A stretch of DNA of 64,000 nucleotides from Octopus vulgaris (Eukaryota): assembly GCA_951406725.2 (NCBI GenBank), contig OX597832.1, positions 19,654,001-19,718,000 on the forward strand. Reading direction: 5' to 3'. The notes below the pieces were generated by a model. It searched no databases and had not been told where the DNA came from. It saw only the letters and a program-made list of their open reading frames with translations. A program made the position numbers and the translations under genes. Positions 9,086 to 9,381 of this stretch are shown one piece after another (within the stretch, counting starts at the first letter, position 1; each line of letters opens with the position of its first letter).

Positions 9086-9378
9086 TATTTAGTGAAGGGA
9101 AGAAATGGAGCTGACCGAAGATTCTACAGAATTCCTTTTATTATTTTCTACACATGTTTCAAAGGCCGCAAATTTCCAAATTCGGATTGAATAAGGAGAC
9201 CATTTTGCAGCTTTCTCTTCAGGAAAATCCCGGAATTTAAATCTCCAAACAAAAAACTGCAAAATGGTCTCCTTATTCAATCCGAATTTGGAAATTTGCG
9301 GCCTTTGAAACATGTGTAGAAAATAATAAAAGGAATTCTGTAGAATCTTCGTTCAGCTCCATTTCTTCCCTTCACTAA

Positions 9379-9381
<3 letters not shown>
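9086..9381. repeat. 125-bp near-perfect inverted repeat, 46-bp spacer
   Basis: 9086-9210 versus the reverse complement of 9257-9381: one mismatch by eye (ctgaccgaag vs ctgaacgaag). Confidence 0.95.
9143..9228 (-). ncRNA. Type-I hammerhead ribozyme
   Basis: Minus strand: AUUUUC-CUGAAGA-GAAAGCUGCAAA...UUUGCGGCCUUU-GAAA-CAUGUG-UA-GAAAAU. 6-bp stem I, 12-position stem II (one mismatch, two G-U), short stem III, GUA triplet. Confidence 0.8.

Follow-up and report, generated by a model that had tools for sequence, protein, structure and literature searches.

Positions 8934-9383 of the window, the 64,000-nt stretch of the Octopus vulgaris genome analysed here, most probably represent the product of a single retrotransposition event within a (TA)n microsatellite, the mobile unit being either a member of a Penelope-like element (PLE) family or a non-autonomous derivative that depends on one for its movement. 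The full unit is set between two (TA)19 runs and combines a 5'-truncated main copy with a second, more deeply truncated copy that is inverted and lies head to head with the first, the outer ends of both abutting (TA)n (Table 1). Membership of the PLEs is suggested by architecture and ribozyme type. Like EN+ PLE insertions, the unit shows 5' truncation with an adjacent inverted 5'-truncated copy and carries near its 3' end a hammerhead with a palindromic mini stem III, whilst the (TA)n target typical of the Hydra, Neptune and Naiad clades is present on both flanks and other copies also end at (AT)n. The single locus would be one more truncated Penelope-type insertion with an ordinary cause. A modest use lies in the family, a multi-copy hammerhead with a fixed non-G-C pair at 10.1-11.1, a very long stem II and a score below the Rfam cut-off.

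Table 1. Features of the palindromic unit and of a neighbouring repeat family in the 64-kb window
Feature	Position	Strand	Description
(AT)19 left flank	8896..8933		presumed half of the target microsatellite
'Tail'-like extension	8934..9085	-	152 nt, at one end only; covered by family contigs
Main copy	8934..9256	-	3'-terminal 323 nt of a multi-copy repeat that bears the hammerhead; 5' truncation at ~9253-9256
Left palindrome arm	9086..9210		belongs to the main copy; private base at 9115
Type I hammerhead	9143..9228	-	stem I 9228-9223/9148-9143; CUGAAGA 9222-9216; GAAA 9160-9157
Predicted cleavage site after GUA	9148..9149	-	from the motif and the Rfam alignment
Self-complementary mini stem III (ACAUGUGU)	9150..9157	-	not stable in cis; two copies pair as an 8-bp duplex
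Stem II	9215-9204/9172-9161	-	long; 31-nt loop
Spacer	9211..9256		main-copy part 5' of the inverted copy's truncation point; includes CUGAAGA together with the stem I 5' strand
Inverted second copy	9257..9381	+	more deeply 5'-truncated; begins inside stem II and stops at the family's inner TA-rich end
(TA)19 right flank	9384..9421		presumed other half of the target
Dispersed 230-410-bp repeat copies	9500-9900, 16629-16868, 22951-23367, 26799-27200, 41060-41321, 44767-45162, 58938-59349		

Palindrome geometry and flanks

As assembled, the left arm is identical to the reverse complement of 9257-9381 at 124 of 125 positions (99.2%), with 46 bp between the arms. This agrees with the first-pass annotation, which had described a near-perfect palindrome and had located CUGAAGA (from 9222) in the spacer only, with the motif absent from the copy; the inverted arm is without it because its truncation point fell inside stem II. 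The extent given in that annotation, 9086-9381, holds as the coordinates of the palindrome but omits 152 bp of the element (8934-9085) as well as both (TA)19 flanks. The sole mismatch between the arms is 9115/9352, at which the left arm carries a base that differs from 98-100% of the depth of family contigs and the right arm carries the family base. Together with 9076, where 98-100% of contig depth likewise differs, 9115 is private to the copy at this Octopus vulgaris locus. At all 12 family-polymorphic positions that fall within the arms, both arms have the same allele; because of this sharing, the two arms are taken to stem recently from one template or one subfamily, in keeping with the earlier suggestion of a young insertion or fold-back event. 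The spacer ends in an A-run, and the junction there has 5 of 8 matches in the fold-back register.

Arms this similar might also arise from an assembly or library fold-back artefact imposed upon one ordinary PLE remnant, and PLE tandem and inverted structures are known to trouble assemblies. We nevertheless consider an artefact distinctly improbable: the second arm, rather than running into the flank, comes to a stop in a TA-rich place where a different family copy likewise meets (AT)n; the sequences past the two (TA)n runs are unique and differ from one another; the single mismatch sets a private base on the left against the family base on the right; and no other long near-perfect palindrome was found within the 64-kb window. 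Contigs from the four aligned sequencing runs (X1, X2, X4 and X6) neither cover 9258-9276 nor join 9256 to 9257, a gap in cover that is no proof either way. No target-site duplication is readable in the (TA)n. The window as a whole is AT-rich (23-40% GC), and 29% of it is short tandem repeat.

Two smaller inverted structures were observed elsewhere in the window. Positions 943-1070 form a 128-bp near-perfect palindrome (95%) whose two ~50-bp arms enclose a (TA)n centre and which may be a further small inverted insertion or a MITE, and at 39534-39673 inverted 42-bp arms, 90% identical, lie ~56 bp apart.

The hammerhead motif, its conservation and its predicted folding

On the minus strand, 9228-9143 has the organization of a type I hammerhead, with the CUGANGA, GAAA and NUH core elements placed in three helices of which helix I is open. 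The motif stands as first annotated, with 6/6 stem I pairs, CUGAAGA, GAAA and a GUA cut between 9149 and 9148. The stem II described in the same annotation does span 12 positions, but only 11 of these pair, position 4 being an A-C mismatch that had gone unmentioned. The Rfam Hammerhead_1 model aligns exactly to 9143-9228 of the minus strand with 20.3 bits, below its cut-off of 34 bits, and with an E-value of 0.0062 that is flattered by the small (106-base) search size. At gathering score, no Rfam family matched in the 64-kb window, and a search of 8900-9450 returned 25 matches with no hammerhead among them; the miRNA-precursor matches in that interval were set aside, all falling far below their cut-offs and reflecting the hairpin. 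A relaxed descriptor that permits one stem II defect, composed after the site was known, detected one site in the 64-kb window and gave a match in 1 of 200 block-shuffled windows, whilst a stricter descriptor missed the site owing to the A-C mismatch in stem II. No second hammerhead core was found within the 64 kb. Pattern scans of viral contigs and of prokaryote genomes gave 0 matches each, and three metagenome matches were rejected as chance, lacking stem I and showing similarity confined to the pattern.

In the family contigs, none of the 21 positions that make up the core and stem III has a listed variant at a frequency of at least 5%, whilst 11 of the remaining 65 hammerhead positions do (P = 0.037). 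Three of the four stem II variants keep or restore a pair, that at 9212 mending the A-C mismatch, that at 9167 turning U-G into U-A and that at 9168 forming a wobble, with the terminal variant at 9172 breaking its pair. A linked pair of variants at 9144/9145, present at 45-61% of depth, breaks one stem I pair, the partner side falling outside the positions listed. The G10.1-C11.1 pair is absent in both possible registers, which offer either G-U or an extra G followed by A-U, and no family variant of at least 5% is listed at the G-U positions, 9215/9161. Earlier read as a sign of low activity, this G-U is, judging by the aligned contigs, the family norm rather than decay, and G-T is tabulated at 10.1-11.1 in two Hydra-clade elements, Penelope-13_HM and -17_HM (PMC8557442).

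When constrained to the hammerhead fold, the 86-mer reaches -13.4 kcal/mol against -15.6 kcal/mol for the minimum-energy structure, so the hammerhead is not the minimum fold; the alternative register, in which G9215 stays unpaired and the 10.1-11.1 pair is A-U, comes to -13.2 kcal/mol. Pair probabilities in the monomer are 0.25-0.43 for stem I and ~0.08 for stem III. As a duplex with itself, the stem III segment forms 8 bp at -8.0 kcal/mol, an arrangement of the type published for Penelope hammerheads, which bears out the earlier remark that activity may need dimerisation. With a self-complementary stem III this small, the RNA is predicted to cut poorly alone and should do better as a dimer in tandem parent transcripts; the ribozyme probably serves the life cycle of the parent element and works as a dimer.

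A further proposal of the first-pass annotation was that the locus is a potential structural switch. Its thermodynamic premise holds: an RNA with both arms folds at -229 kcal/mol with a probability of 0 for stems I and II, and a two-arm transcript would sequester the ribozyme. That the transcription start has been selected to decide between a cleaving ribozyme and a 125-bp duplex is nonetheless scarcely credible. A cleaving transcript would have to begin within 28 nt (9256-9229), and even an RNA starting at 9256 attains a stem I probability of only ~0.06; a dimer-partner core is absent within 64 kb; no host gene was found nearby among the 140 of 197 window ORFs scanned; and truncation accounts fully for the geometry. 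Minus-strand read-through is predicted to make the complementary arm first, burying the ribozyme, and a plus-strand transcript would be without the core, so that read-through of either strand yields a long hairpin only and leaves the switch unsupported. The hammerhead at 9143-9228 would be an orphan, any transcript across both arms being locked in the 125-bp hairpin. At most, the locus might give rise to a long RNA hairpin, which may serve as a substrate for small-RNA processing or for editing.

A multi-copy family in sequencing contigs

Among the 24 sequencing runs listed, 20, which come from 8 studies and 4 organism labels, contain 31-53% of 36 words sampled from 8934-9276, and the best-matching of these could be the source of the window itself. 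None of the 20 is listed as RNA, though X6 may be such a run. Four of the 20 matching runs were aligned, giving 1044 (X1), 729 (X2), 464 (X4) and 94 (X6) contigs at 85-100% identity that cover 27 of 29 bins over 8934-9257, numbers that do not equate to copy number. Individual contig pieces are listed for 32 of 2337, with row lengths of 66-179 nt among those listed. The first-pass annotation, which recommended a search for family copies, had not recognised the locus as belonging to a multi-copy family with the standard Penelope arrangement; because the contig identities spread over 85-100%, 8934-9256 is, on the evidence of these alignments, part of a diverged multi-copy one. The 64-kb window holds no second copy of the 8934-9383 family.

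Contig ends inform on the extent of the unit, with 24 of 139 loose ends listed. One X6 contig (contig 27, 8989-9159, 5 differences) shows that in a different copy, too, the outer 152-nt segment is continuous with the hammerhead part. In X1, X2 and X4, loose ends at 9253/9254 run on into upstream family sequence without a counterpart here; because other copies continue beyond this point, the copy at the Octopus vulgaris locus is 5'-truncated. At the opposite side, two X6 contigs meet (AT)n, one at 8937 and the other at 9083, and these points correspond to the two outer ends of the unit. In two X1 contigs, upstream family sequence is followed by an 18-letter match to loop II in inverted orientation (compared by eye), with the family variants at 9178 and 9175, most simply a second head-to-head junction at another point. 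The two (AT)n ends and this second junction are each seen in one or two of the contigs listed.

These ends and junctions bear upon the possibility that a single PLE stump was inserted first and the inverted arm was added later at the DNA level, through fold-back priming in break repair or replication slippage at (TA)n. The sharing of 12/12 polymorphic alleles is what would be expected if one arm had been copied from the other, and the 5/8 matches in the fold-back register at the junction fit such an event. However, the outer limit of the arm falls at a family terminus, and the family appears to contain another junction at a different point, both of which argue for an insertion process over locus-specific repair and make a later inversion highly improbable.

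It is also conceivable, though improbable, that the family carries ~60 nt upstream of the core a built-in complement of its unusually long loop II, such that folding would be gated at the family level and not through a chance inversion, and the family would constitute an undescribed PLE hammerhead variant with two priming sites. The basis for this is the same two X1 contigs; those of X2 and X4 stop one base into the segment. If true, the built-in complement and the two priming sites ~150 nt apart would offer a high-copy system for testing two-ended priming.

Over 8982-9005, summed contig depth is ~3-10x that over the hammerhead in X1, X2 and X4. This 24-nt stretch is, as far as depth indicates, common to more subfamilies than the rest of the element, and it may be a recognition site near the main 3' end; we also take it to resemble a splice-site context. 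The literature covered on hammerheads in octopus and on Penelope twin priming or inverted copies does not describe the family, most subscription papers and Repbase lying outside that coverage, and the family may already be present in the O. vulgaris repeat library (PMC13282606) or in Repbase.

Relation to published elements and proposed mechanism

According to Craig et al. 2021 (PMC8557442), PLE insertions are 5'-truncated and frequently carry, at that same 5' end, a second copy that is inverted and itself lacks its 5' part, along with a 30-40-bp tail at one end; a (TA)n bias is reported for the Neptune, Naiad and Hydra clades, and Penelope-13_HM is noted to have an inverted 5' copy. Arkhipova et al. 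2013 (PMC3846280) report inverted ends head to head and propose self-priming. The unit shares with this EN+ PLE layout a truncated copy with an inverted partner, a one-ended extension, an AT-rich or (TA)n target and a hammerhead near the 3' end, but differs in its ~150-nt extension (30-40 bp in theirs), in having no ORF left and in showing no readable target-site duplication.

The Hydra clade provides a close comparison for the ribozyme. The hammerhead table for that clade contains self-complementary stem III sequences similar to that of the 8934-9383 element, and Hydra-1_Obim has a CUGAAGAG core with A-T next (PMC8557442). Common to both sides are the (TA)n target, an ac..gt stem III, a 10.1-11.1 pair that is often not G-C and the CUGAAGAG core of Hydra-1_Obim (PMC8557442 section 11, S1, S2, S7), whereas stem II has 11-12 bp with a 31-nt loop here and the Hydra rows show stems of 3-7 bp closed by 3-10-nt loops. 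Identity with Hydra-1_Obim was rejected on account of different stems and a different 3' end, and a short-motif search of the accessible PMC8557442 supplement, in which line breaks can hide motifs, gave no match to Hydra-1_Obim or to the (Octopus) Naiad consensi. The Naiad clade has no canonical hammerhead, in contrast to the complete one here, with its 55 nt between core halves lying near the 35-50 nt of the 'half-core' cases.

Cervera and de la Pena 2014 (PMC4209133) describe a mini helix III that is palindromic, an additional nucleotide following A9, activity that is low and depends on dimers, a conserved G10.1-C11.1 and motif pairs on opposite strands 100-700 bp apart; a review (PMC6765202) and a retrozyme preprint (bioRxiv 10.64898/2026.07.22.740005) concur on hammerhead type. 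The present motif agrees with such minimal PLE hammerheads in being type I, with a larger helix II, an optional nucleotide after A9, a palindromic mini helix III and predicted dimer cleavage (PMC4209133, PMC6765202), and departs from them in having no G10.1-C11.1, a 6-bp helix I and a core in only one of the two inverted copies. In the Poseidon element PAc of Anolis, Frangieh et al. 2024 (PMC11167929) found AT-rich DNA cut and extended on both strands, with two internal start sites defining the tail. The locus resembles PAc in its AT-rich target and, under the PLE reading, in having two internal points downstream of the hammerhead at which reverse transcription starts and which fix the two possible ends. 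The PAc ORF begins in stem II (PMC11167929), and an equivalent ORF was rejected here, where the frame opened by the loop II ATG runs into a stop codon that overlaps the invariant GAAA core.

Several observations count against the PLE reading. A Pfam scan of 140 of the 197 window ORFs gave no RT or EN match, only a transposase fragment, and the 55-aa open frame, used as a query against longer proteins in a weak search, found no match; in neither was an RT or GIY-YIG gene linked to the family. The extension is ~150 nt rather than 30-40, both stem II and its loop exceed in length those of the Hydra-clade rows, the G10.1-C11.1 of the 2014 consensus is missing, the 9144/9145 variants affect stem I, no duplication is readable, and the (TA)n termini and the second junction are seen on one or two contigs each.

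The repeat could instead be a hammerhead-bearing SINE or retrozyme-type repeat that was not moved by a PLE (compare the schistosome Sm-alpha satellites and the tandem 150-450-nt retrozymes), with the inversion incidental. No ORF was found, type I hammerheads with a palindromic stem III are typical of such repeats too, and the element resembles animal non-LTR retrozymes in being non-coding and multi-copy with a type I hammerhead (bioRxiv 10.64898/2026.07.22.740005). Yet those retrozymes comprise tandem units, each with a hammerhead, whereas the locus here is inverted, with no tandem units, one core and a single family copy in the window. There is no tRNA gene in the 64-kb window, and no Pol III A or B box was found in 8934-9383, the 5' part of which is truncated. 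Since the inverted partner, one-ended tail and (TA)n target form a PLE signature, an origin independent of PLEs is unlikely in our estimation, and retrozymes have themselves been proposed as PLE derivatives, so the two readings overlap.

Under the PLE reading, a GIY-YIG nuclease would have cut the (TA)n target, and the two target ends would have primed reverse transcription of the same template RNA at two internal start sites ~150 nt apart. Both cDNAs would have stopped early, after ~320 and ~125 nt, and the truncated products would have been joined head to head at the A-run, with its 5/8 fold-back matches; alternatively, the first cDNA may have folded back on A-T microhomology, with the same outcome. 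The hammerhead would be the element's own pseudo-LTR ribozyme. Junctions and ends compared across family copies in a good assembly could tell whether two-ended priming or fold-back self-priming is at work, a choice that the cited papers do not decide.

Other repeats were encountered in the window. A dispersed 230-410-bp family, 70-90% identical and with internal ~180-bp tandem units, has one of its copies (9500-9900) just to the right of the palindrome unit. Two ORFs without Pfam matches resemble parts of retroelements: 52640-53014 (plus strand), within (TAA)n, looks like the end of a Dong/R4-type non-LTR element that encodes the restriction-like endonuclease, and 46453-46932 (minus strand) like the C-terminal end of a CR1/L2-type LINE. 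A broken Tc1/mariner-type transposase lies on the minus strand at 1618-2399, with weak Pfam matches to HTH_32 and HTH_Tnp_Tc3_2 at 2154-2399.
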